Positions 10,130-51,794 of a DNA stretch of 64,000 nucleotides are shown in pieces. Source of the DNA: an uncultured Verrucomicrobiota bacterium (lineage in GTDB: Bacteria > Verrucomicrobiota > Verrucomicrobiia > Palsa-1439 > CAZOTB01). The notes below the pieces were generated by a model. It was not told the DNA's origin. It saw nothing but the letters and a program-made list of their open reading frames with translations, and did no database searches. The stretch spans positions 12,777 through 76,776 of the forward strand of contig CAZOTB010000002.1 in assembly GCA_964582645.1 (NCBI GenBank). Direction: 5' to 3'. Made by a program: the position numbers and the translations under genes. Positions within the stretch are counted from its first letter, which is position 1, and every line of letters starts with the position of its first letter.

Positions 10130-10277
10130 CCCGCCAAAAGACAGCGAGTAGGCCGGAATCGTCTCCGGGCTGCTCGCGCAAATGTCACTCTTCCTGACCG
10201 GTCACGGCAGTTCTGGGGAGAAGCGTCCATGCCTCGCGGCGTCGTCCATCGCCTGGCGTACCGGGGGATTCCATTTC

Positions 10278-10517
10278 TCAGCGCCAGTCGTGTTCGGCGC
10301 GAATGATCCATTGCGGGTGCATGTTGTGGACGGTGAGGAAGGCTTCGAGCAATTCCCGGCTGGGGGCTTCGAACTCGCAGAGCAGTTTCCCTTCGACGGA
10401 GTCGGCGACAAACCGCACGGACGTGACTGTTTCGTCCCGCTTCAACTCCTCCGTGAGCGCGTGCAATTGTTGGCGGGTTAAACACGCAACCGTGTGTAGG
10501 CTGAAATATCGTGGCAT
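10278..10517 (-). CDS. DUF4242 domain protein
   Basis: 79 aa, MPRYFSLHTV...FEAPSRELLEAF, matching the DUF4242 consensus pattern (MPxYLVxHT...FCVFEAPS). ATG at complement 10515-10517. Confidence 0.55.
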   Translation of the reverse strand: MPRYFSLHTVACLTRQQLHALTEELKRDETVTSVRFVADSVEGKLLCEFEAPSRELLEAFLTVHNMHPQWIIRAEHDWR

Positions 10518-10757
10518 ATGCGCTCCGAGACTGGCGGCGTCTTATCTCCTGATTCTCACCGCTGTGCAACGAGAAACTCCATACTTTCAATAGGATTCTC
10601 CACCGTCTGCCGCTGGGTGTTCGTGGCATCGGAAACGCTATTCCAGATGTGAGGATGTGTCGCAGAAATTCGCAGAACGCATGGAGATGGCGTGGCGTTC
10701 TTGGTGGCACAACCGTTGCTAAAACGGCAGGGACACTTTGTGGGAACGGGCGTAGCC

Positions 10758-11681
10758 ATGGAGACAAAAACCCAGGACAACGAGAAATTGCAACTGCTTC
10801 AGACCGTCGAAATGTTTGAAGCGGTCACGCAGGCGAATCCGGACGACTATCAGTCCCTCGAAATCCTCAAGGAAGCCTATGTCAAACTGGGACGCGACGA
10901 CGACAGCCACCGCGTTGCAAAGCAGGTCGCGCTGGCCCATTACAGCCTCGGTCAGTTCGCCAAGGCCATTCAGGAACACGAAGCCATTCTCAAGAAATGG
11001 CCGAATGATTCTGAGAGCAAGAAAGCCCTCAAGGAGCTTCGCGAGCGATCAAAAGACGGCGATGCGGTCACGCAGGCAGCAACGCCCGATGCCATCGAGC
11101 ATCTTCCAACCAACCGTTCTACCGGCAAGGATAGTGAAGAGCTGCTCTGTGATCTGATCGTCAAACGAGCTTCCCGTCTCAAACAGAATTTGGGCGATCC
11201 CGACGGCGACGAAGTGCTGTGCGAACTCATCGTCAAACACAACCTTCTGAAGGAAAAAGACGTCATGGATGTTCTCCATGGCGTGCAGGGCCAAAACGCG
11301 CAGATGAATTCGGACTCGATTCGGGTTCATCTGGTGCAGGGGTTCAGCGACCGCGGGTTGCTGTCGCCGGAACAGTTGCTGGCTTTTATCACGGAGAAAA
11401 CCACGTTGGCGTATATTCCTCTCACGATTTACGACGTGGTGCCCGATATCGTGCGGTTGCTGCCACGCGACATCGCGTTCAGGCACTGCATCATTCCGTT
11501 CGATCGGATCAGCCGCACCCTGTTGATGGCCTCGGCGAATCCATTCGACGAACCCGCCAAAAAAGCCGCGGAGAAGGCGCTCGATTACAACCTGCAATGG
11601 TACGTCTGTAACCCCGCCGAGATCACCCAGGTACTCAAGGACGTGTACCTGATCGGCAAAGCCAGCACGAAAGACGACTAA
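10758..11681 (+). CDS. TPR-like plus GspE_N (T2SSE N-terminal / MshEN-like) domain protein
   Basis: ATG at 10758 (METKTQDN). N-terminal TPR-like helical repeats. C-terminal region (...LCDLIVKRASRL...LCELIVKHNLLKEKDVMDVL...IPFDRISRTLLMASANPFDE...) resembles the N-terminal domain of GspE/PilB/MshE ATPases. Lies 13 nt upstream of the ATPase gene. Confidence 0.6.
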   Translation: METKTQDNEKLQLLQTVEMFEAVTQANPDDYQSLEILKEAYVKLGRDDDSHRVAKQVALAHYSLGQFAKAIQEHEAILKKWPNDSESKKALKELRERSKDGDAVTQAATPDAIEHLPTNRSTGKDSEELLCDLIVKRASRLKQNLGDPDGDEVLCELIVKHNLLKEKDVMDVLHGVQGQNAQMNSDSIRVHLVQGFSDRGLLSPEQLLAFITEKTTLAYIPLTIYDVVPDIVRLLPRDIAFRHCIIPFDRISRTLLMASANPFDEPAKKAAEKALDYNLQWYVCNPAEITQVLKDVYLIGKASTKDD

Positions 11682-11693
11682 TAGACGCTTGTC

Positions 11694-13403
11694 ATGAAAT
11701 CTTTTGGCGAACGCATCGCAGACCTGCTGATCGAAGAGGGATTCCTCCTGGCGGAGCAACTCCAGGAAGCAATCACCATCCAGAAAAAGGAGGGCGGCCG
11801 TCTGCTCAAGATCCTCCAGGAGAAGAAGTACGTCTCCGAAGAGGACATGATGATCAGCATCGGCCGTTGCCTTGGCTGTTCGCCGGTGAATCTCGCGCGC
11901 ATGCGCATCCCGCCCGAGACGCTGCAGATCATCTCGAAAGAGATGGCGAAAAATTACAATCTCGTGCCCGTGGCCAAGATCGGCAACCGTCTGTTCGTGG
12001 CCATGGCCGACCCGATGAACGTCATCGCGCTTGACGATTTGCGTCAGGCGACCGGTCTGAACATCGTGCCGATGATCAGCACCGAAAAGGCGGTGTCGGA
12101 CTGCTTGAACAACATCCATGCTCAGATGAAGGGGAGCATGGAGGAAATTCTCAAAGACACCGACGTGCCCGATCTCGAACTGACCAAGGACAGCCAGGAT
12201 GAGATCAACCTGGACAAGCTTGTCGAGGGATCCGAGGAAGGCCCGGTCATCAAGATCGTCAACCTGCTGCTCGTCCAGGCCATCAAGGACCGGGCGAGCG
12301 ATATCCACATCGAGCCATTCGAGAAGAAAGTCCGACTGCGCTACCGCATTGACGGCGTGTTGTACGACAGCACCGCGCCGCCGAAGTTCATGCAGCACTC
12401 GATTTCGTCGCGCATCAAGATCATGGCCAACCTCGACATTGCGGAACGCCGTCTGCCACAGGACGGTCGCTTCCGCATCAAGATCGCGGGACGCGAGGTG
12501 GATCTCCGTGTTTCCTTGCTGCCGACGGTCCACGGAGAGAAGATCGTCATGCGTGTGCTCGACAAAGGCTGCCTGGCGTCGAGCCTCGAAAGCCTGGGCA
12601 TGGACGAACACACCCTGGGGCGGTTCCGCGATGCGATTGATTCGCCGCACGGCATGTTGCTGGTCACGGGACCGACCGGTAGCGGCAAGACCACCACGCT
12701 TTACTCGGTGCTGCAGGAGCTGAATTCACCCGAGTACAACATCGTCACCGTCGAAGACCCGGTCGAGTATCAGCTCAACGGCATCAACCAGGTCCAGGTC
12801 AAACCCGAGATCGGTCTGACTTTCGCCAGCGGTCTGCGTTCGATTCTGCGCCAGGACCCCGACATCGTGATGGTGGGCGAAATCCGTGACAACGAAACCG
12901 CCGACATCGCGGTCAAGGCGGCCCTCACCGGCCACCAGGTGCTCTCCACGTTGCACACAAACGATGCCGCGGGTGCCATCGCGCGTTTGATTGACATGGG
13001 TATCGAGCCGTTCCTGGTTTCCTCCTCCATCATCATGACGTGTGCGCAACGACTTCTCCGCAAGATTTGTCCGCACTGCAAGGAGCCGGTCGTGGCTCCG
13101 AAGTCGTTGCTCGATCGCCTCAAGCTCAAGATCGAGCCCGGCGAAAAGGTCGAATTCTACCGTGGGCGCGGATGCGATCGCTGCAAAAAGACCGGCTTTC
13201 TCGGACGTGCCGCCATCATCGAAGTGCTGCGTTGCAGCGAAGGCATCCGTCAACTCATCGTCAACGATGGCAAGGCGTTCGAGATCAAGAAACTCGCGCT
13301 CGAGGAGGGTATGAGGACGTTGCGCATGGCCGGGATCCTCAAGGCCCGCGAAGGCATCACCTCACTCGAGGAAGTTTTCCGCGTCACTGCTGCGGATGAA
13401 TGA
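11694..13403 (+). CDS. GspE/PilB-family secretion/pilus-assembly ATPase
   Basis: 569 aa with Walker A GPTGSGKTTT, Asp box, His box, tetracysteine CPHC...CDRC, and an N-terminal GspE_N domain. Confidence 0.9.
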   Translation: MKSFGERIADLLIEEGFLLAEQLQEAITIQKKEGGRLLKILQEKKYVSEEDMMISIGRCLGCSPVNLARMRIPPETLQIISKEMAKNYNLVPVAKIGNRLFVAMADPMNVIALDDLRQATGLNIVPMISTEKAVSDCLNNIHAQMKGSMEEILKDTDVPDLELTKDSQDEINLDKLVEGSEEGPVIKIVNLLLVQAIKDRASDIHIEPFEKKVRLRYRIDGVLYDSTAPPKFMQHSISSRIKIMANLDIAERRLPQDGRFRIKIAGREVDLRVSLLPTVHGEKIVMRVLDKGCLASSLESLGMDEHTLGRFRDAIDSPHGMLLVTGPTGSGKTTTLYSVLQELNSPEYNIVTVEDPVEYQLNGINQVQVKPEIGLTFASGLRSILRQDPDIVMVGEIRDNETADIAVKAALTGHQVLSTLHTNDAAGAIARLIDMGIEPFLVSSSIIMTCAQRLLRKICPHCKEPVVAPKSLLDRLKLKIEPGEKVEFYRGRGCDRCKKTGFLGRAAIIEVLRCSEGIRQLIVNDGKAFEIKKLALEEGMRTLRMAGILKAREGITSLEEVFRVTAADE

Positions 13404-13543
13404 TCGTCCCCGCAGCAGCCTGCGCGGATCCGGTCCCAGTGAATCTCCATTGTGCTGATCCCTCTTGGTGTGCGCGAGCGGCAGCCGCGCTCGTGGCATA
13501 ACGGCTGCTAAAAATACATCATCGAACGCAGAAGCAACTGTCT

Positions 13544-15622
13544 ATGAACCTCTCATTTTTCAGGCGATGGAAGACCCAGCCAGCCGCAGCGTCACCCGCA
13601 GTCACCGAAAAGTCTGCCTGTGCCACGAGTGCCACGGAAACAGCGACCGCCACCTTGGCTGGTGACGCGGACACCACTGTTGAGTGCCTGGAGATGCCGT
13701 GGGAGACGGTGCTGCCGTTGTTGCCGCAGTCCGCGGTGCGCACCACCGGGAACACAGACCTCACCACGCGCGTCCGTCTGCCGCTCAAGCAGATTCTTCC
13801 GCAATTGTCCAAGGGACGGGTTGTTGTTCCACTGAGCGATCTGCTTTCGCAGTTACCCGCGGAACTGCGTACCACGACGGGACCGCACTCGGGCACGGAA
13901 AAGATCTCACTTCCGATCGAACAGGTCGTGGCAAATCTGTCGCCCGAGGCGTTGCAGGCGCGTTCCGACCAGCGCGAGATTGAGATCGAGGAAAGCGAAA
14001 TCCCGGTACCATTCACCGAAGAACCGCGCCACGCCAGTCTGCTGGACGGGGAAGGGCCTCTCGTTCTCGATCCCCCGGCAACACGAACTGCCCAAGTAGC
14101 CGAGCCCGTTCCGCAGGCGCGGCAGGTGGAGCCTCCAACGACAACGGACGCTGCGGAAATGCCATCCATCCGAATTCCTCTGATCGAACCGGCTGCCATC
14201 CGTGATGTTGCGCCGCCGACTCCGACGCCTGCGCAGCCGTCCGCTCAGGGCGGGGAGGCGGTCAAACCATGGATATACCTCACGCTTGCGAGCGTGCTGG
14301 ACAGCATTCCCAACAACGCGCTGGCCGCCGACCGTGAACTGATCCGGTCGCAGGTGGACGGGAGCTACCAGATTCCCGTGCAGGCAGACCAGATCATCGG
14401 TCAGCTCAGCAAAGGTCGTATCGAACTCGACCTCGGCAAGCTGGCGAGCAAATTCCCCGAAGGCGTGCTCATTCCGAACGCGAACGGGCAGATCACGCTC
14501 GGCGTGGACAAAGTGATTGATCAACTCCCCGCGAACGTGTTTTCGCAGGACACAGAAGCCGAGGCACCTGGTCCGACGTTCCAAGACATTCCCGATCCAT
14601 TCCGCGAGACCAACCGGGCGACGCAGCCCGCGACACCGACCGTCAAGGAAACGCCGCCGCCGGCTTGTATCGAAGCACCGCCGGCACCACAAGCAACGGA
14701 AGCGATCGCCGAGCAGGATATTCCGCAGATACTATTTGCGCCCGTGACACCACCTCCCGCTGCAGAGCCGGTCTCCGAGACCACACCGGTGCCCAGCGAA
14801 CCGCGCGTTGAATTGCCATGTCAGACTGTGCCGGTGGTCGGGCCCGTGGCATCTGCGCCGGTCGAGCCGCCTGCGGCCGAATCGCCTGCAGAGCCGGTGG
14901 CCGAGCAAGAACTCGACGATCTGGATTCCATCGAGACGACGACCGAGCCGGTAGCGAGCGCTACGGAGCCGCCCCAACGTCGCGTGTCCGCCGAGGAGAT
15001 TGCCAGGGCGTTGAACGATGTCAACGCGTGGACCGCGGAGGACTTCCATCGCCACACGCTTGGACCGACTTTGAGCCAGCGCATCATCGCCTATCGCACG
15101 CAGCGTGGTGGATTCCAGAGCCTGCGTGAGCTGCTGCAAATCGGCGGCATCGGCCCACGCGTGTTCGAGAAGGTTCTCGGCTTCAGTCCAAGCGCGCTCG
15201 AAGACGAAGCGCATGCAATCAATCGCCTCTTGGGCGTTCCGTGCGACCACGAGATGTCGCTGCAGGAAATCGTCAAGTGCGCGAGCCAGTTGCCGGGCGT
15301 CGAAGGCTGCATCGTGGCGATGGGCGACGGACTCTACATGACGGGCGAGCTGCCCGGACACATGGATTCACAGCGCGTCAGCGCGTTCGCGCCGCAATTG
15401 TTTGGACGCGTGGCGCAGTACGTCCGCGAACTCAACGTCGGCACCGCACGCCGGTTGACGATCTTCACCGACGCCCAGCCGATCACGATTTTCAAGGCGA
15501 ACGATCTGTTCTTCATCGTCATTCACAAGGCCAACCGGTTCTCGAAGGTCTTGTTGAACAAGTGCGAACGGATCAGCCAGGAAATTTCCCGAATTTGCTC
15601 CAAGGAGACTGCGAAAGAATAG
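13544..15622 (+). CDS. large proline/threonine-rich protein with ComEA-type helix-hairpin-helix and C-terminal Roadblock/LC7-like domain
   Basis: 692-aa ORF. Long low-complexity P/T/E/A-rich region with two copies of a QLSKGR(V/I) motif. HhH near aa 480-540 (VNAWTAEDF...LLQIGGIGPRVFEKV). C-terminal approx. 120 aa match the Roadblock pattern (QLPGVEGCIVAMGDGLYMTGELPG...ITIFKANDLFFIVIH). Start choice is uncertain (no clear Shine-Dalgarno). Confidence 0.55.
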   Translation: MNLSFFRRWKTQPAAASPAVTEKSACATSATETATATLAGDADTTVECLEMPWETVLPLLPQSAVRTTGNTDLTTRVRLPLKQILPQLSKGRVVVPLSDLLSQLPAELRTTTGPHSGTEKISLPIEQVVANLSPEALQARSDQREIEIEESEIPVPFTEEPRHASLLDGEGPLVLDPPATRTAQVAEPVPQARQVEPPTTTDAAEMPSIRIPLIEPAAIRDVAPPTPTPAQPSAQGGEAVKPWIYLTLASVLDSIPNNALAADRELIRSQVDGSYQIPVQADQIIGQLSKGRIELDLGKLASKFPEGVLIPNANGQITLGVDKVIDQLPANVFSQDTEAEAPGPTFQDIPDPFRETNRATQPATPTVKETPPPACIEAPPAPQATEAIAEQDIPQILFAPVTPPPAAEPVSETTPVPSEPRVELPCQTVPVVGPVASAPVEPPAAESPAEPVAEQELDDLDSIETTTEPVASATEPPQRRVSAEEIARALNDVNAWTAEDFHRHTLGPTLSQRIIAYRTQRGGFQSLRELLQIGGIGPRVFEKVLGFSPSALEDEAHAINRLLGVPCDHEMSLQEIVKCASQLPGVEGCIVAMGDGLYMTGELPGHMDSQRVSAFAPQLFGRVAQYVRELNVGTARRLTIFTDAQPITIFKANDLFFIVIHKANRFSKVLLNKCERISQEISRICSKETAKE

Positions 15623-15631
15623 AAGGAAGCC

Positions 15632-16288
15632 ATGTCCATCATCAACTACGCCAGCAAGGAAATTCAATTCAAGATCGTCTTCTACGGTCCCGCGCTCTGC
15701 GGCAAGACGACCAACCTCTCGTACATTCACTCCCAGATCAATCCCGACAACCGCGGCGATCTCGTGTCGCTGGCGACGGCGGCGGACCGGACGTTGTTCT
15801 TCGACTTCCTTCCGCTGCACGCGATCACGATCAAGAACTTCAAGACCAAGTTCCAGCTCTACACCGTGCCCGGGCAGGTCATCTACAACACGACGCGCCA
15901 GCTCGTGCTGCGGAGCGTGGACGGCATCGTGTTCGTCGCCGACTCGCAGTGGGACAAGATGGAGGAGAACATCGAGAGCTTCCGCAACCTCGAAGACAAC
16001 CTGGCGAAACAGAACCTGAAAATTGACGATGTGCCGTACGTGTTGCAGTTCAACAAACGCGACCTGCCGCGGATCGCGCCGACGCACTACCTGAATTACC
16101 TGCTCAACAACCGCAAAGTGCGCGTGCCCAGCTTCGAGGCGTGCGCCACCTCCGGCAAGGGCGTGTTCGACACGCTCAACATGATCTCGCGTCTGGTGCT
16201 GCTCAAGTTCACCAAGGAAAGCGACCAGCAATCCGCCGCCGCCGCCAAACGTCCAGCGCCCAAGCCGCTGGCGACCACGCACGTCTGA
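15632..16288 (+). CDS. mglA: Ras-like small GTPase MglA
   Basis: 218 aa. [29 protein letters not shown]... closely matches Myxococcus MglA ([29 protein letters not shown]). Arginine finger DRTLFFDF and VPGQ present. GAAGGA Shine-Dalgarno upstream. Confidence 0.9.
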   Translation: [218 protein letters not shown]

Positions 16289-16318
16289 TCGCACCGCACT
16301 CCAGGAAGCACGCATCAC

Positions 16319-16792
16319 ATGGACGCCATCCCGGTTCTCGGCCTGGAAGAAGTCGCGCAGATTGACGCGGTGCTCAACGAGTACCTCGACAAGTCGGAGG
16401 CCGACCTCGCCGTGGTGCTCGACAAGGGCGGCAACATCATCTCCCAGCAGGGCGAACGCAACACCGCCCATCTGGCGATTGTGGCCGCGTTGGCCGCAGG
16501 ATCGTTTGCCGCAACCAAGGAACTCGCCAGCCGCATCGGCGAGCCGGAGTTCAGCGCGCTGTACCACCAGGGCAAGAATGGGCACGTGTTCATGAACGCC
16601 GTGGACGAGAATACCGTCCTGCTCACGGTGTTCTCCGGCAAGACCACGGTGGGGCTGATTCGGTTCTACTCGGTCAGTTGTGCCCGCAAGCTTCAGCAAA
16701 TCCTCGATCGACTCCGCACCCAGCCGCAACGCAGCCGCTTCACGCTCACCGTCGCCGACATTCAGAAAGCCGGCTCGCTGTTCCAGAGCTGA
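16319..16792 (+). CDS. mglB: MglB, Roadblock/LC7 GTPase-activating protein for MglA
   Basis: 157-aa Roadblock/LC7 protein immediately downstream of mglA. VVLDKGGNIISQQG...VLLTVFSGKTTVGLIRF resembles M. xanthus MglB (VFLVDKNGQLISSAG...VVLVVIFDNRTSLGLVRL). Confidence 0.85.
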   Translation: MDAIPVLGLEEVAQIDAVLNEYLDKSEADLAVVLDKGGNIISQQGERNTAHLAIVAALAAGSFAATKELASRIGEPEFSALYHQGKNGHVFMNAVDENTVLLTVFSGKTTVGLIRFYSVSCARKLQQILDRLRTQPQRSRFTLTVADIQKAGSLFQS

Positions 16793-16889
16793 GTCGCCCG
16801 CGCGGCAGTGAATTCCCTGGAGTCTGCCACGTCGTAAAGGCAGGGCACCTGTGCTGCCATTTGCAAACCCGGCATCTGTTTGCTACAGA

Positions 16890-17693: not shown

Positions 17694-17906
17694 GCGGGCT
17701 CACCGTTCCCGGTTCACGGTCCAGGGTTGGCGGTTGTCGGGTTGGCCATGGATGGACACAGATTTTCACGGATACAGAATGCGTTGGTCCGTGTTCCATC
17801 CGTGCCAATCTGTGGCTCCCTTGCTTGACCCGCTGCATCTCGCTCGTTACTGTCACCGCCTCTTTCGTTGGAACTGAATCGCAAGCTGGATCATCAAAGG
17901 AACGAC

Positions 17907-36236: not shown

Positions 36237-36238
36237 CC

Positions 36239-37075
36239 ATGACATGTAATCATTCAAGTGGAGGTTTCTTCGGAAGAATGAAGGATAAAGTTGTTGGTGG
36301 ATATGAAGGAATTAAGAATAGATTGTTAGGAGATGGTGTATTTGATTTGGAGTATGTTGGACAAGAAAGATCTGGATTACCAGGTATTAATTATGCTGGT
36401 AATAAAGCATTTACGCTGATTGAATTACTTGTTGTTACTGGAATTATTGCTATTTTAGCTGCGATGACTTTGCCTGCTTTGAGTTCTGCTAAAGCTGCCG
36501 GGAAAAGAGCATCATGCATTAATAATTTGAATCAAATTGGAAAAGCCATGACGATGTATGCTGGAGATAATAAAGATTTTCTACCTCCAACTGGGACTCT
36601 CATGAATGATGTAACTTCAGATTGGCAGCTTAGAACTCCTTTAGGCACAAATTTTAATGCGGGCATGGTTATAGCAAATGCAGGCACAACAATCTCGACT
36701 GGAAATATTGCTAGTTATAAATCGTTTGCTTGTCCCGATGCCAGTTATTTTACACTTAAGAAATTAGATGATGATTGGTCAAATCCAAGCGGAGTACCAG
36801 AAAGTTCTTATTTGTATAGAAGTAAAATGCATGGAAGACTTGAAAAGCTTGGTGATCTAAATGGTCAAGAACCAAATAATCTTATTATGACGGACTTTAA
36901 CAAATATTATGGTAGTCCAAATGAGAATCATCGAGGGAAGTTAGTAAACGTTTTATTTGCTGATGGACATGTTGCAACAGCAAATAATATAAGTAATGAA
37001 TTGGGTATTTATGTTCCGGCTCGTTTATCAAATTATTGGAATATTCTCAAGGTAAAATTTCCTGGAGGAATTTAA
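36239..37075 (+). CDS. prepilin-type N-terminal cleavage/methylation domain protein, DUF1559 (H-X9-DG) family, in a low-GC island
   Basis: [45 protein letters not shown] is the PVC-lineage prepilin/DUF1559 N-terminus. [12 protein letters not shown] looks like the H-X9-DG motif. The gene is about 35% GC against a roughly 62% GC background. An unusual 57-aa leader precedes the FTLIE motif. Confidence 0.8.
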
Positions 37076-40896: not shown

Positions 40897-42036
<1,140 letters not shown>

Positions 42037-42118
42037 GAATCGAGGCTGCCACCACCGGCTCTTCTTACGCACCTTTTACAAGCTTTGCGTTTGCAGTTTT
42101 CAAAGGAACTGGCACAAT

Positions 42119-44482
42119 ATGCCGCCAAGGATGAGTAAACGACTTTGGATGGACATGGTTCGCCGCTGCCTCGCCGCATTCTTGTGCGTCGTGCTCGTGG
42201 CGCCGGTTTCCGTTCCCGGCCAGGATACGCCCAAGATTGAGGGGCCGACTCTGCGTCCGGCTGCCACCGATCTGCCGCCCGCACCGCCGCCGGCGACCGT
42301 TCCCACCAAGACCGGCATGCGCGTTTCGTCGAACCCCGATGAGAAACCCAGCCTGACCGTCCGCTGGGAAAGCGCGCCGGCCGCGGCTGCATTGCAGAGA
42401 TACTCCGACCTCACCGGGCGCACCGTGATCCAGAACGCCGCGCTCTCGGGCGTGGTTTCACTGGACACCAAGACCATGCTCACCACCAACGAGATGCTCC
42501 TCGCCATCGAGAGCGTGTTGTTCGCCAACGGCATCTCGCTGACACCGATGGGCGACAAGTTTGTGAAAGCCGCCGCCAACCAGGCCATCGCGCGCGAGGG
42601 CATCGCCATTGCCGGGGCGGACGCGGAGTTTCCCGAGGGCGACCGCATCACGGCGACGGTGATCCCGTTGCAGTACCTGGATGTGGGCGACGCGTCCATC
42701 GTGCAAAGCCTGTCGCAGTTCATCCATCAACCCGGAGGCACGATCCTGCCGTTGACGCGCTCGAACAGTCTGCTGATCATTGACACCACGCTCATCGTGA
42801 AACGGTTGCAGGAGATTCTCGAGCGCCTCGATCAGAAGGTCGAGAACCGCATTCAGACTTACTATCGTCCTTTGACCAACGCAGAGGCGTCGAAGGTCGC
42901 CGCGACGATCCAGGCGTTGATCACGGGATCGGCGCCGGCGACAGGGGGCGCTCCCCGACCTCCGCCCCGGCCAGGCCAGCCAGCCACAGTGGCGGCAGGT
43001 CCTACCGAGGAGTCCATCGTAGCCGGCAAGGTCATCATCCAGGCGGACGAGCGCACGAACACGCTCATCATTTTGACCCGACCATCGAACCTCGAATTCC
43101 TCGAAGGCATCATCAGCGCGCTCGATGCGAAGGTCGAACCCGAGATTCGCTTCAAGAAATTCAAGCTCGAACACGCGCGCGCGGAGGATGCCGCCGATAT
43201 CTTGCTGTCGCTGACGGGCAGCGGCAGCCAACCGACGATCCAACGCCGCGCCTCGACCACCCAGCGTGCCGACCGCAACCGGCTCGGACGCACGAGCTAC
43301 GGCTCGAGTGCCCGCGACCGCACACAGACGGGAGCGCAACAGCCGCAGCCGCAGTTGCCGCCCATCGCGCGCCAACCGACCACGCCCACCGGGACCACCG
43401 CGACCCAACCCGGGCAGGGTGTGGAGAGGCCGGATTTCGTGTTGAGCGAACGAGCGCGCGTGATCGCCGATCCCCGGCAAGGCTCGATCCTTGTGTTGGG
43501 CACGGCCAGCGATCTGGAACTGGTCGAGATGATCATCCCGGAAATTGACCTGGCCCTGGCGCAGGTCATGATCGAGTCCATCATCGTCGAGGTCACGCTC
43601 GACAACAACGCCGAGTTCGGCGTGAACATCCTCCAGCGCGAGTGGGAAAAGGGCAGCAACAAGGGCGGCGGCGCCTCCCTGCCATCGGTAGTTGCCACCA
43701 ACGCGCTGCAGAAACTTGCGTTCCTGCGCGACCCGCAACAGTTTGCCGCCTCGGGTCTGGCGGGTCTTGGGGGGCTTACCTATTTTCTCGACCTCGGCGG
43801 CCTCGATCTCGATGTCATCGTGCGCGCCGTGGCGGGTTCGTCCAACTTCAAGGTGCTGCAGCGGCCATTGCTCCAATCGTCGCAGAACGAGCCCGCGCAC
43901 ATCTTCGTGGGCGAGACGCGCCCAATCATCACCGCCACACAAACCAGTTTCACCGGTGACGATGCGCTGCGCTCCACCATCGAACAGTTCGACATCGGTG
44001 TCACCCTTGATGTGACTCCCAACATCACGCCCGGTGGATTGGTGGAACTCGAGGTCGAACAGACCGTCGAGGACGTCTCCGGCGAAGTGCGGGTGGACAA
44101 CAACCTGCAACCGATCGTCTCCCGTCGCGAGTTGACCTCCCTGGTGAGCGTACGGGACCGGGGCGTCGTCGCGCTCGGCGGTCTCATCAAGAACGGCAAG
44201 ACGAAAACGGAGAGCAAGGTGCCGATTCTGGGCGATATCCCCCTCCTCAGCTACGCCTTCAAGCAGACCTCGTGGAAGGATTCCCGTATCGAATTGATTG
44301 TGTTCCTGCGGCCCACCGTGCTGCGCAGCGCCGATGAAGCCATGAAGGAAGCGCAGAAGTTGAGGAACAAATTCAAGGGACTCGACAACATTCCGAAACA
44401 GGACGTGCCGGCTCTGCCTGAAGAACCCGGTCCTCCCGAGAAGAAACCCTGGTACGCGCCGTTGCAGCCGCCGCCGTCCTGA
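42119..44482 (+). CDS. secretin (GspD/PilQ family outer-membrane channel)
   Basis: ATG at 42119 followed by a signal peptide. N-domains and the C-terminal secretin domain (…VVALGGLIKNGKTKTESKVPILGDIPLLSYAFKQTSWKDSRIELIVFLRPTVL). Confidence 0.85.
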   Translation: MPPRMSKRLWMDMVRRCLAAFLCVVLVAPVSVPGQDTPKIEGPTLRPAATDLPPAPPPATVPTKTGMRVSSNPDEKPSLTVRWESAPAAAALQRYSDLTGRTVIQNAALSGVVSLDTKTMLTTNEMLLAIESVLFANGISLTPMGDKFVKAAANQAIAREGIAIAGADAEFPEGDRITATVIPLQYLDVGDASIVQSLSQFIHQPGGTILPLTRSNSLLIIDTTLIVKRLQEILERLDQKVENRIQTYYRPLTNAEASKVAATIQALITGSAPATGGAPRPPPRPGQPATVAAGPTEESIVAGKVIIQADERTNTLIILTRPSNLEFLEGIISALDAKVEPEIRFKKFKLEHARAEDAADILLSLTGSGSQPTIQRRASTTQRADRNRLGRTSYGSSARDRTQTGAQQPQPQLPPIARQPTTPTGTTATQPGQGVERPDFVLSERARVIADPRQGSILVLGTASDLELVEMIIPEIDLALAQVMIESIIVEVTLDNNAEFGVNILQREWEKGSNKGGGASLPSVVATNALQKLAFLRDPQQFAASGLAGLGGLTYFLDLGGLDLDVIVRAVAGSSNFKVLQRPLLQSSQNEPAHIFVGETRPIITATQTSFTGDDALRSTIEQFDIGVTLDVTPNITPGGLVELEVEQTVEDVSGEVRVDNNLQPIVSRRELTSLVSVRDRGVVALGGLIKNGKTKTESKVPILGDIPLLSYAFKQTSWKDSRIELIVFLRPTVLRSADEAMKEAQKLRNKFKGLDNIPKQDVPALPEEPGPPEKKPWYAPLQPPPS

Positions 44483-45154: not shown

Positions 45155-46594
45155 TCAGAGCATGAAGCCGAGATCAGGATGGGCGAAACGGCCGATGTTC
45201 GGGAACACGGTGGCCATGTCCGAGCTGCCGACGCCGAACCATTTCGCGAGTGTCGCCGAGTATTCGTCCACGGAAGTGGTGGGAATCCAACGACCCAAGC
45301 CGGTGTCGTCGGGGCCGTTGACGGTGAGCGCGGGAAGAATTCCGAACGTGCGCCGACCATTGACGCCGCCGCCCACGATGATGTGGTGGCTGCCCCAACC
45401 ATGGTCGCTACCCTGGCCATTGGTCGGGAACGTCCTTCCGAAATCGCTCGCGGTGAACGCCGTGACCTTCGAAGGCAACGCGGCGTCCTCTCCTGCCTGC
45501 GCCGCGAGTTGCTCCATGGCGCGCTGGAAGGCGAAGAGGCTCTGACTCAACTCGCCGATCAGATTCGCGTGGCCGCCGACGGTGGTGTCGTTCGGATTCG
45601 CGGCGTTGCCCACCTGTCCCGTGTGCGTGTCGTAGCCACTGACCGAGACGAAGAAAATCTGCCGCTTCATGTTCATCGCCGAGCGTGCCGCGATGAGGCG
45701 GGCAACCATTTTAAGCTGGTTGCCGAGCGTGGTGTTCGGAAATGGCACGGTCCAGTACGTAGCCGACGCCGTGGGCGCGATCGCGGTGTTCAACACGTCT
45801 GCGGTGTTGATCGAATGGGCAGCGACGGTGGCGTAGGCCTGCTCCTGCATGTTCGGGTAGTTGAGCCCGAGGATGTCCTTTACCGCCTGCAAGCGCGGGC
45901 CCGTCACCCCGGTCAAGGACACCGCGCCCGTCGTGGAGACGGAGTATTGCGACACGATGTTGCCGACCTCGAATGTGTTCGCGCCCGCGAGCGTGACGGT
46001 GAGCGAGATTTTTCCGCCGTTGCTCGTGTTGAGCGTATCGAGCAGGTCGGCGCAACGTCCGCCCCACCCCGTCAGTGGCGGTTGATCGGGGATGGATGTC
46101 TGCCATTGTGTGACCTGGTCGGCGTGGGAAAACAACTGCGGCGGCTTGGCGACGCTCCCTGCCTGGTACTGGGCGCGGGTGATCGGATAGACGAGCGTGC
46201 CGGTGTTGAACAGGACCGCTAGTTTGTTCTCGGCGAAGAGCGTTTGCAGGCCGGTGCAACTGGGATGCAACCCATAGGTGTGCCCGTCATTATTGATCGG
46301 TGTAATCGGGAGCAGGCTGGATTGTGGCAGCGCGAGGTTCTGACGGATGGCCGCGTAGTTTTGGTATTCGGTGTCGCCGGCGGGCACGATCAGGTTGTTC
46401 GAGTCGTTGCCGCCGGCAAGGAAGACGCACACCAGCGCCTTGTAATCGGTGATTGTGCCCTGCGCCATCGCCGCGTTGATGAAACGCAGGTCCCGCAACA
46501 TGCTGGTGACCGCCCACGTGCCGACGGCGGCGCAGGAAGCCTTGCGGAGAAAATCGCGGCGGGTGATGGGCTGGGCGTAACGTTTGCGGCTCAT
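45155..46594 (-). CDS. DUF1501 domain protein (Tat signal, sulfatase-like)
   Basis: Twin-arginine signal TRRDFLRKA and DUF1501 pattern. Immediately downstream of the DUF1800 protein. Confidence 0.85.
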   Translation of the reverse strand: MSRKRYAQPITRRDFLRKASCAAVGTWAVTSMLRDLRFINAAMAQGTITDYKALVCVFLAGGNDSNNLIVPAGDTEYQNYAAIRQNLALPQSSLLPITPINNDGHTYGLHPSCTGLQTLFAENKLAVLFNTGTLVYPITRAQYQAGSVAKPPQLFSHADQVTQWQTSIPDQPPLTGWGGRCADLLDTLNTSNGGKISLTVTLAGANTFEVGNIVSQYSVSTTGAVSLTGVTGPRLQAVKDILGLNYPNMQEQAYATVAAHSINTADVLNTAIAPTASATYWTVPFPNTTLGNQLKMVARLIAARSAMNMKRQIFFVSVSGYDTHTGQVGNAANPNDTTVGGHANLIGELSQSLFAFQRAMEQLAAQAGEDAALPSKVTAFTASDFGRTFPTNGQGSDHGWGSHHIIVGGGVNGRRTFGILPALTVNGPDDTGLGRWIPTTSVDEYSATLAKWFGVGSSDMATVFPNIGRFAHPDLGFML

Positions 46595-46598
46595 AAGA

Positions 46599-49500
46599 TT
46601 ACTTCTGGATGGTGAAGTCCGGCGAGGTGACCATGAGGTGGATGGTGGCGCGAACCCGGTCGCGTTGCTGGCTGGCGGTTGGAGGAGTCGAATACGGGAA
46701 GTTGGTCGAGGTGACGTACGTCACAATCGTGTTGGACGCGCCTGTGGACAACTGACCCGCCAGCAGCAGGGAGTTCAGCGTGCCCACCAGGCTCGGGACG
46801 CCGGTGTTGCTGGTGTAATTGGTGGTCATGTACGGACCAATGTCGAGGACGATCGAGCCGTTGCCGTTCTTAAAGCTGTTCAACCCATTGGTGTTCGATC
46901 CCTGGCTGTTGATGATCGCCCCCGCGAGGAAGTTGTTTTGCAGCGCCACACCGGTGTCGGACGTGAGCTGGAACTCGGGCGTGGTCAATCCCGCCGAGGC
47001 GAGAAGCCCCGGGAACTTGTAGTCGGGGAAGAAGTAGTTGAACACCGTCGGCGACCGCAACGGCGTCTGGGTCAGGTCGAGGTCGGTCACGCCCATGTTC
47101 CACGTGCTCGACTGGACCGTGACGTTGCCCGATCGCACCAGCGGCGGCCCGGCTAGCGGCGCGACCACGTGGCTGTTCTGGTTTTGATTGGCGACCGCGC
47201 CGACGACGATGGTGAAGTGATCCTCATCCACGACCGACGCCACCGCATACTGGCCGTCCGCCGCCGTGCCGGACATGAAATCAATATAGACCTGGTCGCC
47301 CGGGTTCAGCCCGTGGTTGCCGGCCGTGCTGACGGTGATGATGTTTGTGTTCGGCTGCGAGTAGCCGCCCTTGTAGAACGCGAGCAGGCAATTGCCCGAA
47401 AGCGTCGCCGCGTCCGGGGTCGTCACGCTGAAAGCCGAATTCGACGGCACGCTCACCACTTCGTACACGCCGTTGGAGGCGCCGCCCGTGGTGAACGTGA
47501 TGTGCAGCCGGTTGCTGACGGCGAGTCCGTGGCCCGCCGAGTTGATCGAGATGAAGCCCCCGGCCTGGTTGTACGCGCCCGTCAACACGCCCGTCGCGTT
47601 GACCGTGAAAGTGTTCACGCCCGTCACCGTCACCGGGTACGCGGTGCTCGTCGGTACCGGAGTTCCCGAATCAAACTGGAGGAAAATATTGTTGCCCGTG
47701 GCCAGCCGGTGGGCGTTGGTGGTCGTCACCGTGATCGCGCGCCCGCCGTTCTGGCTGTAGGTGCCGCCATTCGGCTGCGGCGACGGGAACGCCCGCGCCA
47801 CGCCCGTCGCGCGCAGTAACGGCTCGCGCTGCTTGCCGAACGTCGAGCGGGTGATCTGCGAACTGCTCCGCGCTTCGTAATCGAGCAGGATTGCCTTGAT
47901 CACCGCCGCCATGTCGCCGCGAACGCCGGCGCCGTTGTCGTGGAACACCTTCACCACCCGGTAGAGATAGTCCCGGCTCGGGTGGCTCGTCACGAGTCGC
48001 TGGATGAGTTGCCGGCAGACGAATGGGCCGACGTTTGGATGGTTAAAGATCGCGTCCAGGCCGGTCTCGAGTTCTTGCAAACCATAGTTGTCGTACTCCG
48101 CGTTTGTGGGGTCGGCCTGGCTTCCCGCCGCAGCGGGCATGACCACGTTGTCGAGGATGCGTTTGGTGCCGAGTTCGTGGCGGGTGGGAACGAGCTTCAT
48201 CGGGTTGATGTAATCGGCAGCCGGGCTCCAGTTCGTCGGCAGCCGTCCATTGCTCTGGTTCGGCTGGTTGTAGTTCCAGCCCGTGAACAGCCGGGAGTAA
48301 CCGATCACGACATTCTGATCGTAGGTCGGCACCAGGTTGTCCTGCGAGTTGAGCACCAGCGTGCCGTCCGGCCACATGCGGTAGAGGCCGACCGAGAAGA
48401 GCTGCAGAATCTCGCGCGCGTAGTTTTCGTTCGGGATGCGTCCTGTGGCGAGGTCGCCCTTCTCGTTGCGGCGCATGTCGAGATACAACCCCATCGCGGG
48501 CGTGAGCGTGACCGCTTCGAGGATTTCGCGGAAGTTGCCGAAGGCGTTGTCGAGCAGCGTGTCGTAGAAGGCGGAGAGGGCGCGTCCGTTGTTGTCGAGT
48601 ACGCCGATCTCGGAGACGACCAGGATCTCGCTCAACGCAAACGCCACTCGCTGGCGCAATTGATCGGGCGCGGTGACAGACTGTTGCCACCACGAGTTGA
48701 AGGTCAGGTTGCGCGGATAGGGCGCGGTCGGATCGGAACTGAGGTTCGCCAGCACGAACGGCAGGTGATGCGACACGGGCCTGGCAAACTGATCGTCAAT
48801 CCACGCTTCGTATCCCATCGCCTGCACGGCCGCGATGTCGCTCTGGCTCGGTCCGAACGTCGCCTGCATGAGGAACCGCGCTGCGGCGTTGGCGTTGGCG
48901 TGGTCGTCCGTCCAGGCAGGCGGATCGGGCGGCGGCGAAAACGTTTGCGAGCCATTGGCGAGCGTGTAGTTGCCGCGAATCTCGCCGGCAGGGTAGTTGA
49001 CGGTGTGGATGTTGATGAAGGCCTTGCCCTGCTTGATGACCTCGAGGACGTCCGCCGCCGAGAGCGTTCCTACGGCTGCGATGGGCCAGATGTAACTGCC
49101 GTCCGCCTCCGGCGTGGCATCATCAATGTCGAAGATGATCTGGCTCGGGTGGTTCAGGTACGGGTCGGAGTGGATGTGGGCTGCCGTGTATGGGGAAGTG
49201 AGATTGGTGTAGGCGAACGAGAAGGTCGCCTGGGATTCATCGGCGCTCAGTCGCAACGTGGACGTGCCGATGCCCTGCGATTGGGCGGCACCCTGGGCGA
49301 GCATGGTGGTCGCGTAAAGCGTACCGGGGATGGAACTCGGCGGCGGTTCGACGTACGGCGACAACACGAACCCGGGCACGACCTCGCTCGGTCCCGTGCC
49401 GGCCTGGTCGGGACGCAGCCATCCCACGGCGACATTGTCGTTCGTGCCCGTGCCGGCCTTGTGCAGGACCTCGATGTAGTAGCGCTGCCCGGCCACCAGC

Positions 49501-51428
49501 GCGAGCCACGGTGATTTCTGGTTGGGTTGATTGGTGAAACTCAACGGGGGCGTGCCGCTCGTGACGGAGGCGCGCTTCACTTTGTTGACCGGCTCGTGGT
49601 CATTGGAAATCCAAAGCTCCGCGGTATCGCTCGCGGCGATCCAGAAGTAGTAGTTGCCAGTTACCGGCGCAGTGAGATAGCCACGAATGCGCGCGCCGTA
49701 GTCGTCGCCGAAGTTGGCGCTCGCGAGATTGGTGAGCGTGCCGGCGCCGCTCGGTAGCGAATCGACCGGGATAGCGCTGATCGCAGTGCCGCCGATGCCC
49801 GTCCAGTAATCCCGCGTGATCGAGCCGCCCGTATCCTGAATCGTCAGATTCAGCACGGCGTAGCTCACGCCAAGCGCGTTGGAAGTGGTGAGCATGACCT
49901 GATAGGCTCCCGCGGCGGTGGGCGTGCCGCTGATGAGGCCGGTAGCGGGATTGAACGTCAAACCCGGCGGCAGGTTATTCACGTCAAACCCGAGCGGCAG
50001 GTTGCTGCCCGTGACCAGATAGCTGAACGCTCCGCCGACGAGTCCGACCGCGCTCGTGGGGCTGGTGATCACGGCGGGCGCGGCAGCGGTCGGATAGAGG
50101 CGCTCCAGGGGAATGGGTTGTTTCGTCTGGCTCTCGCTGTACCAGTAGAGTTGCACCGAGGCGCTGCCGGTGTTCTCGAAATACTCGAGCTTGATGTCGT
50201 AGCGGACGCCCGCCTCCAACGGGATCTGGTTTGTCCAATCAGTCGTGCCCTGCGTCTGCCATTGATCAATCAGCAACTGACCGTTGACCCAGAGCTTCAC
50301 ACCGTCGCTGCTGCGCGTGCCGAAGATGTACGTCTCGCTGTGCTCGGGTTGTACCTGGCCGGTCCAGCGAATGGAGAATGTGTTCGTACCCATCGAAGCG
50401 ATGGGCGCGTTGGTGCCCCAATCGAAATTGATCGTCGGGTCCACCTGTGTCAGCATCAGCCCCGTGAAATTCGCGGCATTCGTGTACGTCGCGCTGGCGT
50501 TATCATAGTACTGCCCCGTGAGGCCGGTGCCGGTGGGCGTGGACGAGTCGGCGATCACCAGCGAGGCGCTGCTCGGCGCATCCACGATGTAACCGCTGTT
50601 GGTGGCCAGTGTGAGCGTGACCAACTCCGATGCCTCGACCGCCGCATCCGCCATCGGCGTGACGGCGATGGTGGCATTCGTCACGTCGGGCGGGAGCATG
50701 ACCGAGCCGCTCAGCGGTGAAAAATCAACGCCGTTGGTCGCGGTGCCGCCGAGCGTGTAGAGCACCGTCAGTGTGTTCGTGCCGCCGTTGCGACGGATCT
50801 CGAAGATGCCCGGTTGCGGCCCATCCTCGGTGGCGTTCGGATTGAGCGTCGCGACCGAAAGAACGTTCGGGACCGTGATGAACTTGCCGAATGATGTCAC
50901 CCCATTCGTGATCGTCCCGGCCACGCTGACAGTACCCGTGCCCCAACCGCCGCCCGCAGGAAGCATGGCGGTGATCTGTTCCCGGTTGACGACCACGACG
51001 TTGGAGAGCGTGACGTTAATCGGCGACCCGATGGTGATGAGGGGCGGCGTGTTCGTCGGGAAACCAATGCCGAACACCGTCACCGGCATCGGCACGGGGT
51101 TGGTGCGCGCGAAGGGAAAGATGGCAGTGGTCACGTGCGCCCGCAAACCGACCATGACCTGGTTGATCACCAACGAGTCGGCGCCCGAGACGGTGCCATT
51201 GTCGTTGACGTCGCCGTTCTCGAATCCCGTGACGGCGAAGATCGGGTGGGTGTTGCTCCTGAGACCGACCATGACCTGGTTGATGAGCAGCGAGTCGGCG
51301 CCCGTGACATGGAAATCGCCGTTGACGTCACCCGGCGGGTAAAACTCGTTGGTCTGGGCAGATGTACTCCACGCCAACGCAGAGCAAAAAAATAATGCGC
51401 CGAGGATCCGTGTTGTCATCATGGCCAT
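46599..51428 (-). CDS. giant multidomain DUF1800 protein (dockerin-like repeats, Calx-beta, PA14 x2, cadherin-like Ig, CHRD, DUF1800, T/G/N-rich C-terminal region)
   Basis: ATG at complement 51426-51428 (MAMMTTRILGALFFCSALAWSTSA signal peptide). Domains recognised by motif: DVNGDFHVTGADSLLINQ (dockerin-type), PA14 GLTGQYYDN...FSIRWTGQ, CHRD ...AAHIHSDP...NIHT..YPAGEIRGN, and DUF1800 ...FLMQATFGPS.... Confidence 0.85.
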   Translation of the reverse strand: MAMMTTRILGALFFCSALAWSTSAQTNEFYPPGDVNGDFHVTGADSLLINQVMVGLRSNTHPIFAVTGFENGDVNDNGTVSGADSLVINQVMVGLRAHVTTAIFPFARTNPVPMPVTVFGIGFPTNTPPLITIGSPINVTLSNVVVVNREQITAMLPAGGGWGTGTVSVAGTITNGVTSFGKFITVPNVLSVATLNPNATEDGPQPGIFEIRRNGGTNTLTVLYTLGGTATNGVDFSPLSGSVMLPPDVTNATIAVTPMADAAVEASELVTLTLATNSGYIVDAPSSASLVIADSSTPTGTGLTGQYYDNASATYTNAANFTGLMLTQVDPTINFDWGTNAPIASMGTNTFSIRWTGQVQPEHSETYIFGTRSSDGVKLWVNGQLLIDQWQTQGTTDWTNQIPLEAGVRYDIKLEYFENTGSASVQLYWYSESQTKQPIPLERLYPTAAAPAVITSPTSAVGLVGGAFSYLVTGSNLPLGFDVNNLPPGLTFNPATGLISGTPTAAGAYQVMLTTSNALGVSYAVLNLTIQDTGGSITRDYWTGIGGTAISAIPVDSLPSGAGTLTNLASANFGDDYGARIRGYLTAPVTGNYYFWIAASDTAELWISNDHEPVNKVKRASVTSGTPPLSFTNQPNQKSPWLALVAGQRYYIEVLHKAGTGTNDNVAVGWLRPDQAGTGPSEVVPGFVLSPYVEPPPSSIPGTLYATTMLAQGAAQSQGIGTSTLRLSADESQATFSFAYTNLTSPYTAAHIHSDPYLNHPSQIIFDIDDATPEADGSYIWPIAAVGTLSAADVLEVIKQGKAFINIHTVNYPAGEIRGNYTLANGSQTFSPPPDPPAWTDDHANANAAARFLMQATFGPSQSDIAAVQAMGYEAWIDDQFARPVSHHLPFVLANLSSDPTAPYPRNLTFNSWWQQSVTAPDQLRQRVAFALSEILVVSEIGVLDNNGRALSAFYDTLLDNAFGNFREILEAVTLTPAMGLYLDMRRNEKGDLATGRIPNENYAREILQLFSVGLYRMWPDGTLVLNSQDNLVPTYDQNVVIGYSRLFTGWNYNQPNQSNGRLPTNWSPAADYINPMKLVPTRHELGTKRILDNVVMPAAAGSQADPTNAEYDNYGLQELETGLDAIFNHPNVGPFVCRQLIQRLVTSHPSRDYLYRVVKVFHDNGAGVRGDMAAVIKAILLDYEARSSSQITRSTFGKQREPLLRATGVARAFPSPQPNGGTYSQNGGRAITVTTTNAHRLATGNNIFLQFDSGTPVPTSTAYPVTVTGVNTFTVNATGVLTGAYNQAGGFISINSAGHGLAVSNRLHITFTTGGASNGVYEVVSVPSNSAFSVTTPDAATLSGNCLLAFYKGGYSQPNTNIITVSTAGNHGLNPGDQVYIDFMSGTAADGQYAVASVVDEDHFTIVVGAVANQNQNSHVVAPLAGPPLVRSGNVTVQSSTWNMGVTDLDLTQTPLRSPTVFNYFFPDYKFPGLLASAGLTTPEFQLTSDTGVALQNNFLAGAIINSQGSNTNGLNSFKNGNGSIVLDIGPYMTTNYTSNTGVPSLVGTLNSLLLAGQLSTGASNTIVTYVTSTNFPYSTPPTASQQRDRVRATIHLMVTSPDFTIQK

Positions 51429-51794
51429 GTTCGAGTGAATCGGGTTGTCGTCGGAACGCGCCGTTTGTGTTCTGAACACCGGCCGCGCCATTTGGTTGCG
51501 GACAAGAGCGGCAAAGCGTCCGAGGTGCCACGCTCTGCTGAACCGCCATTCGGCAAGGATATCCGCGATCAACACACACCCTCCCCCGCGCGTTCAGGAC
51601 AAATCATCGTCGTGCCTGTGAAAACGGCTGCATCGTAGGGGAAAAAAGCGCGTCTTGTCAACGCGCCAGCGCCCTGCCCTTTTCGATTTCCATTCCACCT
51701 GCGGCGGATACGATACTGCCGTGTCTCGACACGCCCTGATCGGGGACCGGATCTGGGATGGGCACCCTGCCGGACGCTCGAACAGCTTGCGTCT

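Follow-up and report, generated by a model that had tools for sequence, protein, structure and literature searches.

It is only in part clear how the assembly ATPases that drive type IV pili and type II secretion systems come to be activated at the correct site, and a locus from an uncultured Verrucomicrobiota bacterium raises a related question: what does a copy of such a motor's own regulatory domain do when it is encoded as a separate protein? The locus lies in a 64,000-nt stretch of DNA (hereafter the window; GenBank assembly GCA_964582645.1, contig CAZOTB010000002.1, positions 12,777 to 76,776 of the forward strand), in which the gene at 10758..11681 (+) encodes a 307-amino-acid (aa) protein composed of tetratricopeptide repeat (TPR)-like helices and an MshEN domain. 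We denote this protein TPR-MshEN. A first-pass annotation of the sequence had proposed that it is a receptor for cyclic di-GMP (c-di-GMP). Here, we find that the gene is genuine and conserved in Verrucomicrobia, and that its product, a small cytoplasmic protein, combines a TPR domain with a copy of the N-terminal domain found in pilus-assembly ATPases. Judged by its sequence, this copy has lost the c-di-GMP-binding signature while keeping the MshEN fold, and the protein is more likely to be a protein–protein adaptor of the motor than a c-di-GMP receptor.

A stand-alone TPR-MshEN protein

The open reading frame (ORF), whose coordinates include the stop codon, is genuine: an identical protein with the same ATG start is present in JGI data (P0001), family members of about 300 aa begin at the equivalent position, and the G+C content at third codon positions (GC3) of 0.70 is typical for coding sequence of the window. 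A longer reading from a GTG at 10692 was rejected, as both the homologues and the JGI gene call begin at the ATG at 10758. The TAA stop codon is followed after 12 nt (tag acg ctt gtc) by the ATG of a 569-aa ATPase ORF in the same frame. The first-pass annotation had correctly placed the gene just before an ATPase with its own GspE_N domain, but gave the gap as 13 nt. No match to the T2SSE ATPase domain, with its Walker motifs, was found in the 307-aa protein, which ends right after MshEN, and the architecture described at first reading, a stand-alone TPR and GspE_N/MshEN protein lacking an ATPase domain and followed directly by an ATPase with an MshEN domain, is thereby upheld.

To describe the domain layout, we used an AlphaFold2 model built from a 55-sequence family alignment (mean predicted local-distance difference test (pLDDT) score, 85), which was searched against the PDB with Foldseek. 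The N-terminal TPR-like helical domain (residues 1–101; 10758..11060 (+)) comprises a long helix and two helix hairpins (residues 2–26, 31–44, 47–63, 67–80 and 85–101), all predicted with pLDDT above 90, and includes the conserved core TVEMFEA..PDDYQSLEILKEAY. Foldseek relates this domain to CTPR and other designed TPR proteins (E about 2e-3). The Pfam TPR matches of the window protein, at residues 16–90, lie slightly under the cutoffs (TPR_14, 22.0 versus 23.5; TPR_19, 22.7 versus 25), and many homologues carry precomputed matches to TPR_19, TPR_14 or TPR_16. The invariant columns of the domain are Q12, T16, M19, F20, D30, Y31, Q32, S33, L34, I36, L37, E39 and A40. A variable linker (residues 104–146; 11067..11195 (+)), which has pLDDT below 50 and is probably disordered, connects the TPR-like domain to the rest of the protein; its length ranges from 35 to 93 aa across the family.

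The C-terminal half is predicted with pLDDT above 90 over residues 150–300, as four helices followed by a three-stranded α/β unit. The first part is an MshEN_N-like four-helix bundle (residues 147–215; 11196..11402 (+); helices at 150–160, 166–182, 192–198 and 204–215) that contains a degenerate motif 1, a 14-aa spacer and a degenerate motif 2. The second is an α/β subdomain resembling MshEN_C and the N1 domain of T2SSE (residues 216–300; 11403..11657 (+)), with strands at 245–251, 254–259 and 278–283, flanking helices and a conserved PFD...ANPFD...W..P pattern. Pfam MshEN (PF05157, formerly T2SSE_N) matches residues 218–297 with E=2e-11, at 44.1 bits against a gathering cutoff of 23.1, which is the profile hit by which the first-pass annotation had suggested that its domain assignment be checked; PF05157 is also present in nearly all listed homologues. 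Foldseek gave a probability of 1.0 to five MshEN-fold structures (9g1w, 5htl, 7lko, 8pdk and 2d27), with target TM-scores of 0.78 to the GSPII-A domain of Thermus thermophilus PilF (9g1w), 0.65–0.70 to Vibrio cholerae MshE with c-di-GMP (5htl), 0.63 to the N-domain of Xanthomonas PilB bound to PilZ (7lko), about 0.6 to PilF GSPII-B (8pdk and related entries) and 0.60 to XpsE-N (2d27). According to the model, the C-terminal half thus carries the complete MshEN/GSPII fold, at residues 147–300. In a profile comparison with hhalign, family residues 151–298 align to residues 5–144 of the partner ATPase (96.9% probability over 139 columns), and on sequence grounds the half appears to be a diverged paralogue of the N-terminal MshEN/GSPII domain of the ATPase in which the N1-like subdomain is kept.

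The regions of the protein are unequally conserved. Pairwise identities are 0.50–0.60 in the TPR domain and 0.53–0.65 in MshEN_C, compared with 0.30–0.45 in the four-helix bundle, the least conserved of the folded regions, and 0.14–0.27 in the linker. Selection thus acts mainly on the TPR face and on the N1-like subdomain, and the combination of a conserved TPR domain, a conserved MshEN_C and a variable bundle is more easily reconciled with conserved surfaces for protein binding than with a conserved pocket for a ligand in the bundle.

A conserved family linked to a pilus ATPase gene

In a protein database clustered at 90% identity we obtained 525 matches, the best 120 of which are almost all about 300 aa long, with the same architecture and 32–73% identity; records among these 120 that name an organism read Verrucomicrobia or plain 'bacterium'. 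A profile search of 1.84 billion representatives returned 206 clusters at E≤1e-30, and when one genome per GTDB species was scanned, at least 587 genomes contained a relative. Of these matches, 80 loci were retained. All but three of the record titles of the 80 loci name Chthoniobacterales, Verrucomicrobiia, Spartobacteria, Prosthecobacter or similar; the exceptions are Dongiaceae, Chitinophaga and 'uncultured bacterium', and the first two may be binning errors. Across 55 diverse members of the family, 23 columns are invariant. The long matches among the top 150 representatives, inspected for fusions of TPR-MshEN to the ATPase, proved to be other proteins: P0247 is a PilF-like ATPase with four canonical MshEN domains, and P0170 is a pure TPR protein.

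A gene for a PilB-type ATPase (58–73% identical) stands directly next, on the same strand, in 81 of the 81 loci with downstream DNA, one further locus ending at the TPR-MshEN gene itself, and the same gene order is found in two independent metagenome contigs. The split arrangement, whose recurrence in related genomes had been raised as a check at first reading, is therefore a constant feature of these loci.

Loss of the c-di-GMP-binding signature

MshEN domains that bind c-di-GMP do so through two copies of the motif RLGxx(L/V/I)(L/V/I)xxG(L/V/I)(L/V/I)xxxxLxxxLxxQ, separated by a five-residue spacer to give a 53-residue binding unit; a relaxed form of the motif reads [RKPN]hGxxhhxx[GAS]hhxxxxhxxxhxx[QNKRYWST] (Wang et al. 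2016, PMC5013675). In TPR-MshEN, the equivalent of motif 1 is residues 153–176 (VLCELIVKHNLLKEKDVMDVLHGV) and that of motif 2 is residues 191–214 (HLVQGFSDRGLLSPEQLLAFITEK). This placement agrees between HMMER alignments to the Myxococcus and Geobacter PilB proteins and to MshE, hhalign alignments to the partner ATPases, and the helices of the AlphaFold2 model.

Of the two tandem motifs of about 24 aa on which the first-pass annotation had relied, the first, ELLCDLIVKRASRLKQNL (residues 128–145), falls in the low-confidence linker, outside the MshEN domain. This segment is limited to the closest relatives (P0001–P0006) and absent from the remaining family. Comparison at the DNA level shows the corresponding stretch (residues 126–146; 11133..11195 (+)) to duplicate the start of helix α1: within 11133..11276 (+), 26 of the first 34 nt are identical at an offset of 72 nt (24 codons), and the paired copies read ELLCDLIVK and EVLCELIVK. 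The linker segment looks like a partial copy of the beginning of this helix that arose long ago and is confined to one clade. Its position in the linker, its restriction to one clade, the hhalign result and the DNA duplication led us to reject residues 128–145 and 152–177 as a pair of MshEN motifs.

We counted the residues at each motif position in an alignment of 133 family members. At position 1 (canonical Arg), the commonest residues are A, Q, P, H and V in motif 1 and S and T in motif 2; at position 3 (canonical Gly), they are A (91 members), V, I, C and S in motif 1 and I, L and V in motif 2. Position 10 (canonical Gly) is K, R or Q in motif 1, with G in 9 members, and G (59) or Q (42) in motif 2, and position 24 (canonical Gln) is mostly V, L or I in motif 1 and R or K in motif 2. 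The glycine at position 3, whose backbone amide reads the guanine, is thus replaced in both motifs, much as in XpsE, for which the failure to bind is ascribed to changes such as G11V, R38G, G40L and Q61V (PMC5013675). The spacer between the motifs is 14 aa in 117 of the 133 members (range 8–18) instead of the canonical 5, and hhalign places a 9-aa insertion in the family relative to the partner ATPase. None of the 133 members (0/133) matches the relaxed motif anywhere, although the same regular expression recovers canonical motifs in controls, namely the four-MshEN ATPase P0247, Geobacter PilB and PilF GSPII-B. The NCBIfam model of the c-di-GMP motif, NF053729, likewise leaves the window protein unmatched at E≤0.1 and is not among the 25 listed families matched by at least two of the 55 members, whereas it matches 32 of 32 N-termini of partner ATPases.

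GSPII-A of PilF is instructive here: with one nearly perfect and one degenerate motif it does not bind c-di-GMP, restoration of the consensus residues alone does not rescue binding, and an extended, N-capped helix α1 obstructs the pocket (PMC11731258, PMC12002112). In the AlphaFold2 model of TPR-MshEN, helix α1 starts at residue 150, making motif positions 1–3 helical; this would fit a blocked pocket, if weakly, the model being an apo prediction. Taken with the variability of the bundle, the degenerate motifs, the long spacer and the lack of any match to the relaxed motif or to NF053729 count against the c-di-GMP receptor envisaged in the first-pass annotation.

The partner ATPase

The ATPase (569 aa; 11694..13403 (+)) is of the PilB/MshE type, with Pfam matches to T2SSE (E=5e-142) and MshEN (E=4e-17). 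It scores 664.9 bits with the PilB model TIGR02538 (cutoff 675.65) and 650.2 bits with the GspE model TIGR02533 (cutoff 630.25). Its own MshEN domain spans residues 1–150, with the Pfam MshEN match at residues 61–144, and NF053729 matches residues 7–52 at 40.3 bits (cutoff 38), or 43 bits for the N-terminal fragment alone. Motif 1 (R7–Q30, RIADLLIEEGFLLAEQLQEAITIQ) is near-canonical apart from an exchange of the glycine at position 3 for alanine, and is followed by a spacer of 5 aa. Motif 2 (R36–C59, RLLKILQEKKYVSEEDMMISIGRC) is degenerate, with Leu at position 3, Lys at position 10 and Cys at position 24. Both motifs (11694..11870) are strongly conserved in 32 orthologues, motif 1 being almost invariant and position 10 of motif 2 being Lys or Gln. 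This pattern of one near-canonical and one degenerate motif resembles that of the non-binding PilF GSPII-A. Because motif 2 is degenerate, binding of c-di-GMP by the ATPase is uncertain even though it passes NF053729; the ATPase is nevertheless the better candidate for a c-di-GMP sensor in these loci.

A five-gene string with mglA and mglB

Downstream of the ATPase gene, the window contains three further genes that complete a same-strand string of five: TPR-MshEN, PilB, HHH-Roadblock, MglA and MglB. The third gene (13544..15622 (+)) encodes 692 aa in its longest ORF and 642 aa in the JGI call. It has a ComEA-like HHH_3 domain at residues 492–547 and a C-terminal Roadblock/LC7 domain at residues 577–660, both by Pfam; a role in regulating the neighbouring MglA, in the manner of MglC or MglB, is conceivable. 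The N-terminal half of this ORF carries repeated segments of the type 'LP..I..QL..GR....L..L....P', without a Pfam match. The fourth gene (15632..16288 (+)) encodes a 218-aa MglA-type small GTPase that matches Pfam Arf and Ras, carries the MglA-like YTVPGQ sequence and is 70–77% identical across Verrucomicrobial loci. The fifth (16319..16792 (+)) encodes a 157-aa MglB-type Roadblock/LC7 protein (Pfam Robl_LC7, E=6.6e-13).

A gene related to the 692-aa ORF is present in most loci. Among the 60 loci with at least 4.5 kb of sequence after a complete ATPase gene, 36 encode an MglA-like GTPase farther downstream in the same orientation; a gene for the MglB Roadblock protein is also present in 32 of the 60. 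Loci of the Chthoniobacter type have no mglA or mglB nearby, and their TPR domain is equally conserved. Elsewhere in the family, a PilC-type T2SSF gene lies close by in one related locus (L001) and a prepilin-type gene in another (L002). A scan of 10100–17900 for promoters and terminators returned no more sites than shuffled sequence did and is uninformative on operon structure.

A proposed role at the assembly motor

On balance, we lean towards the view that TPR-MshEN is a cytoplasmic protein that works, independently of c-di-GMP, as an accessory or adaptor subunit of the PilB/MshE-type ATPase whose gene lies downstream. The MshEN-like half would contact the N-domain of the ATPase or the platform, and the TPR domain, which is among the most conserved parts of the protein, would serve as a docking surface for a second, conserved partner, such that the protein would bridge the ATPase or platform to a regulator and control where or when the extension motor engages. 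Where mglA and mglB share the gene string, in about 60% of lineages, the input could be the MglA/MglB polarity switch, by analogy with SgmX of Myxococcus, and the TPR partner could be MglA-GTP or, where present, the Roadblock-containing third protein.

Several systems offer precedents for such contacts. MshEN_C corresponds to the N1 domain of the type II secretion system, which has been crystallised with the cytoplasmic domain of GspL (PDB 2BH1, 4PHT; PMC5013675 supplement). PilF binds PilMNO through PilM, and its GSPII-C domain is needed for the stimulation of the ATPase by PilMN (PMC6325625). The Xanthomonas PilB N-domain, one of the Foldseek matches described above, is the docking site of PilZ (PDB 7lko). 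In Myxococcus, a unit of three TPRs in SgmX suffices for the binding of MglA-GTP, and SgmX itself acts upstream of PilB (PMC7668184).

Some observations weigh against the adaptor role. No gene for PilM, GspL or PilC lies beside the cluster in the window, and no fused TPR-MshEN-ATPase protein occurs among the top 150 representative matches. The TPR domain is as well conserved where mglA is missing from the locus as where it is present, which means that MglA cannot be the partner in every lineage, unless such genomes carry mglA at another site. The guanine-stacking positions of the MshEN motifs have stayed hydrophobic, so that some ligand binding is conceivable. Finally, the contacts of the protein with other proteins, meaning its physical binding to the ATPase or platform and the identity of the TPR partner, are themselves inferred.

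A bolder form of the adaptor role, which we put forward tentatively and hold to be rather doubtful, makes TPR-MshEN a direct coupler between a Ras-like polarity switch and the type IV filament motor: MglA-GTP or the third, Roadblock-containing product would dock on the TPR domain, and the degenerate MshEN domain would pair with the N-domain of the ATPase or replace it on the platform.

The same evidence of fold, linkage and conservation would also accommodate a close variant of the adaptor role, a decoy or inhibitor. In this reading, the MshEN domain mimics the N-domain of the ATPase, competes with it for its docking site on the platform (PilM/GspL-like or PilC) and so keeps the machine inactive until the TPR partner lifts the block. 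The N1-like subdomain, which is the GspL-binding surface in the type II secretion system (PDB 2BH1, 4PHT; PMC5013675 supplement), is well conserved, as this reading would have it. We regard it as unlikely all the same: a linked and probably co-transcribed gene upstream of the ATPase gene in 81 of 81 loci is more typical of a stoichiometric partner, and the docking role of the MshEN_C/N1 domain is not universal. The sequence itself does not tell inhibition from activation.

That the detached MshEN domain is a c-di-GMP receptor passing the signal to the neighbouring ATPase is, in our estimate, improbable. The domain does keep the full MshEN fold, including the four-helix bundle, and aligns weakly over its whole length to the MshEN region of the model for the c-di-GMP-activated glycosyltransferase NfrB (E=6.5e-11). 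Both motifs also retain hydrophobic residues at positions 2, 17 and 21 in nearly all 133 members; in MshE these six positions form the guanine-stacking 'triangles'. Nor is Arg strictly required at position 1, because PilF GSPII-B binds c-di-GMP at 6 nM with Lys and Leu there (PMC11731258). Against these points stand the replacement of the guanine-reading glycine in both motifs, the exchanges at positions 10 and 24 of motif 1, the 14-aa spacer, the failure of all 133 members to fit even the relaxed motif, the selectivity of NF053729 for the partner ATPases and the low conservation of the bundle; GSPII-A, moreover, fails to bind with a nearly perfect motif, and the predicted start of helix α1 recalls its obstructed pocket, if only weakly.

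The notion of a decaying remnant, in which a partial duplication of the 5′ end of the ATPase gene was fused by chance to TPR sequence, would account for the degenerate MshEN motifs and the internal partial duplication in the clade of the window protein, but it is effectively refuted by the conservation of the family: full-length, uninterrupted reading frames of about 300 aa occur in no fewer than 587 species-level genomes and in hundreds of clusters from metagenomes, with identities of 33–73%. The invariant columns, the confident AlphaFold2 models for both domains and a GC3 typical of coding sequence in the window also speak against it.

Comparison with known systems

Detached MshEN domains are not new. 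The remark in the first-pass annotation that the fold is normally found only at the N-terminus of such ATPases was overstated: MshEN is fused to REC, HD-GYP, CheA, CheX, cyclases, kinases and glycosyltransferases (Wang et al. 2016, PMC5013675). The REC, HD-GYP, CheA and NfrB-type glycosyltransferase fusions have an MshEN domain detached from the ATPase, as does TPR-MshEN, and the c-di-GMP-binding MshEN fusions and the N-domain of V. cholerae MshE (5htl) belong to the same Pfam family and fold. In contrast to MshE-type binders, however, TPR-MshEN lacks RLGxxLLxxGLLxxxxLxxxLxxQ in either motif and fails NF053729. A TPR fusion of MshEN is not mentioned in Wang et al. 2016 or its supplement (PMC5013675).

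The N-domain of XpsE/GspE (PDB 2d27, 2d28) and PilF GSPII-A (9g1w) have the same two-subdomain fold and do not bind c-di-GMP. In these domains, as in TPR-MshEN, Gly3 is replaced by a bulky residue and the Arg and Gln positions are lost, and they serve protein–protein coupling rather than nucleotide sensing. They are covalently part of the ATPase, whereas TPR-MshEN is a separate polypeptide with a TPR domain, and their spacer is 5 aa compared with 14 aa in TPR-MshEN.

Among regulators of pilus motors, SgmX of Myxococcus xanthus and Bd2492 of Bdellovibrio are TPR proteins that act as MglA-GTP effectors and are required for PilB-dependent extension. SgmX and TPR-MshEN have in common that a TPR protein is tied to a PilB-type ATPase, mglA and mglB being linked in 60% of TPR-MshEN loci. 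SgmX, however, has 1060 aa and 14 TPRs, lacks an MshEN domain and is not encoded beside pilB. The SgmX model NF052243 matches 6 of the 55 members, with a best E of 7e-4, which reflects generic TPR similarity and not homology to SgmX. The PilZ–FimX system of Xanthomonas (7lko, 7lkm) likewise uses a small accessory protein to regulate a PilB-type ATPase through its MshEN-fold N-domain. There, a PilZ-fold accessory binds the MshEN fold; TPR-MshEN itself carries MshEN and has neither PilZ nor EAL.

A survey of prokaryotic small GTPases describes the gene neighbourhoods of the MglA group that it finds in Verrucomicrobia as variable, without reference to pilB beside mglA (PMC4316618). We found no description of the TPR-MshEN architecture, or of a pilB-mglA-mglB string in Verrucomicrobia, in the literature searched, coverage of which was incomplete. 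Detached MshEN fusions have thus been known since 2016, as have degenerate, non-binding MshEN domains from XpsE and PilF GSPII-A. What is apparently undescribed is a stand-alone degenerate MshEN domain that is joined to TPR and invariably paired with a PilB-type ATPase, as well as the five-gene string in Verrucomicrobiota.

Other features of the window

An 855-aa GspD-like secretin, with a Pfam Secretin match and three Secretin_N stretches, is encoded at 41915..44482 (+), some 28 kb away from the ATPase; none of the scanned ORFs next to it was recognised as a further gene for pili or secretion. The ORF at 36239..37075 (+) encodes an N-terminal methylation motif of the prepilin type (FTLIELLVV) and ends in '...FADGHV'; its annotated start is probably too far upstream. 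These features are usual in the DUF1559-type, pilin-like proteins that abound in Planctomycetes and Verrucomicrobia, to which it probably belongs. The ORF lies in a stretch of low G+C content (36001–38000; 0.48 compared with about 0.61), which suggests recent acquisition. A 1658-aa ORF at 46599..51575 (−) adjoins a DUF1501 protein at 45155..46594 (−). Such a pairing of a large ORF with DUF1501 is common in Planctomycetes and Verrucomicrobia, and it is unrelated to the TPR-MshEN gene. A scan of the whole window with Rfam gave no match.

Implications

These results carry a warning for annotation, in that a Pfam 'MshEN' match does not amount to a c-di-GMP receptor. The family provides a candidate regulator that is strictly linked to the gene of a motor and bears a copy of that motor's own regulatory domain, and it spans a phylum in which pili and secretion systems have received little attention. 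For Myxococcus, the link from MglA and SgmX to PilB is still described as 'direct or indirect' (PMC7668184). If TPR-MshEN did couple a Ras-like polarity switch directly to the filament motor, the five-gene string would be a self-contained, polarity-gated pilus-extension module in Verrucomicrobiota, and would represent a compact, non-homologous counterpart of the Myxococcus MglA–SgmX–PilB pathway that works through mimicry of the ATPase N-domain.

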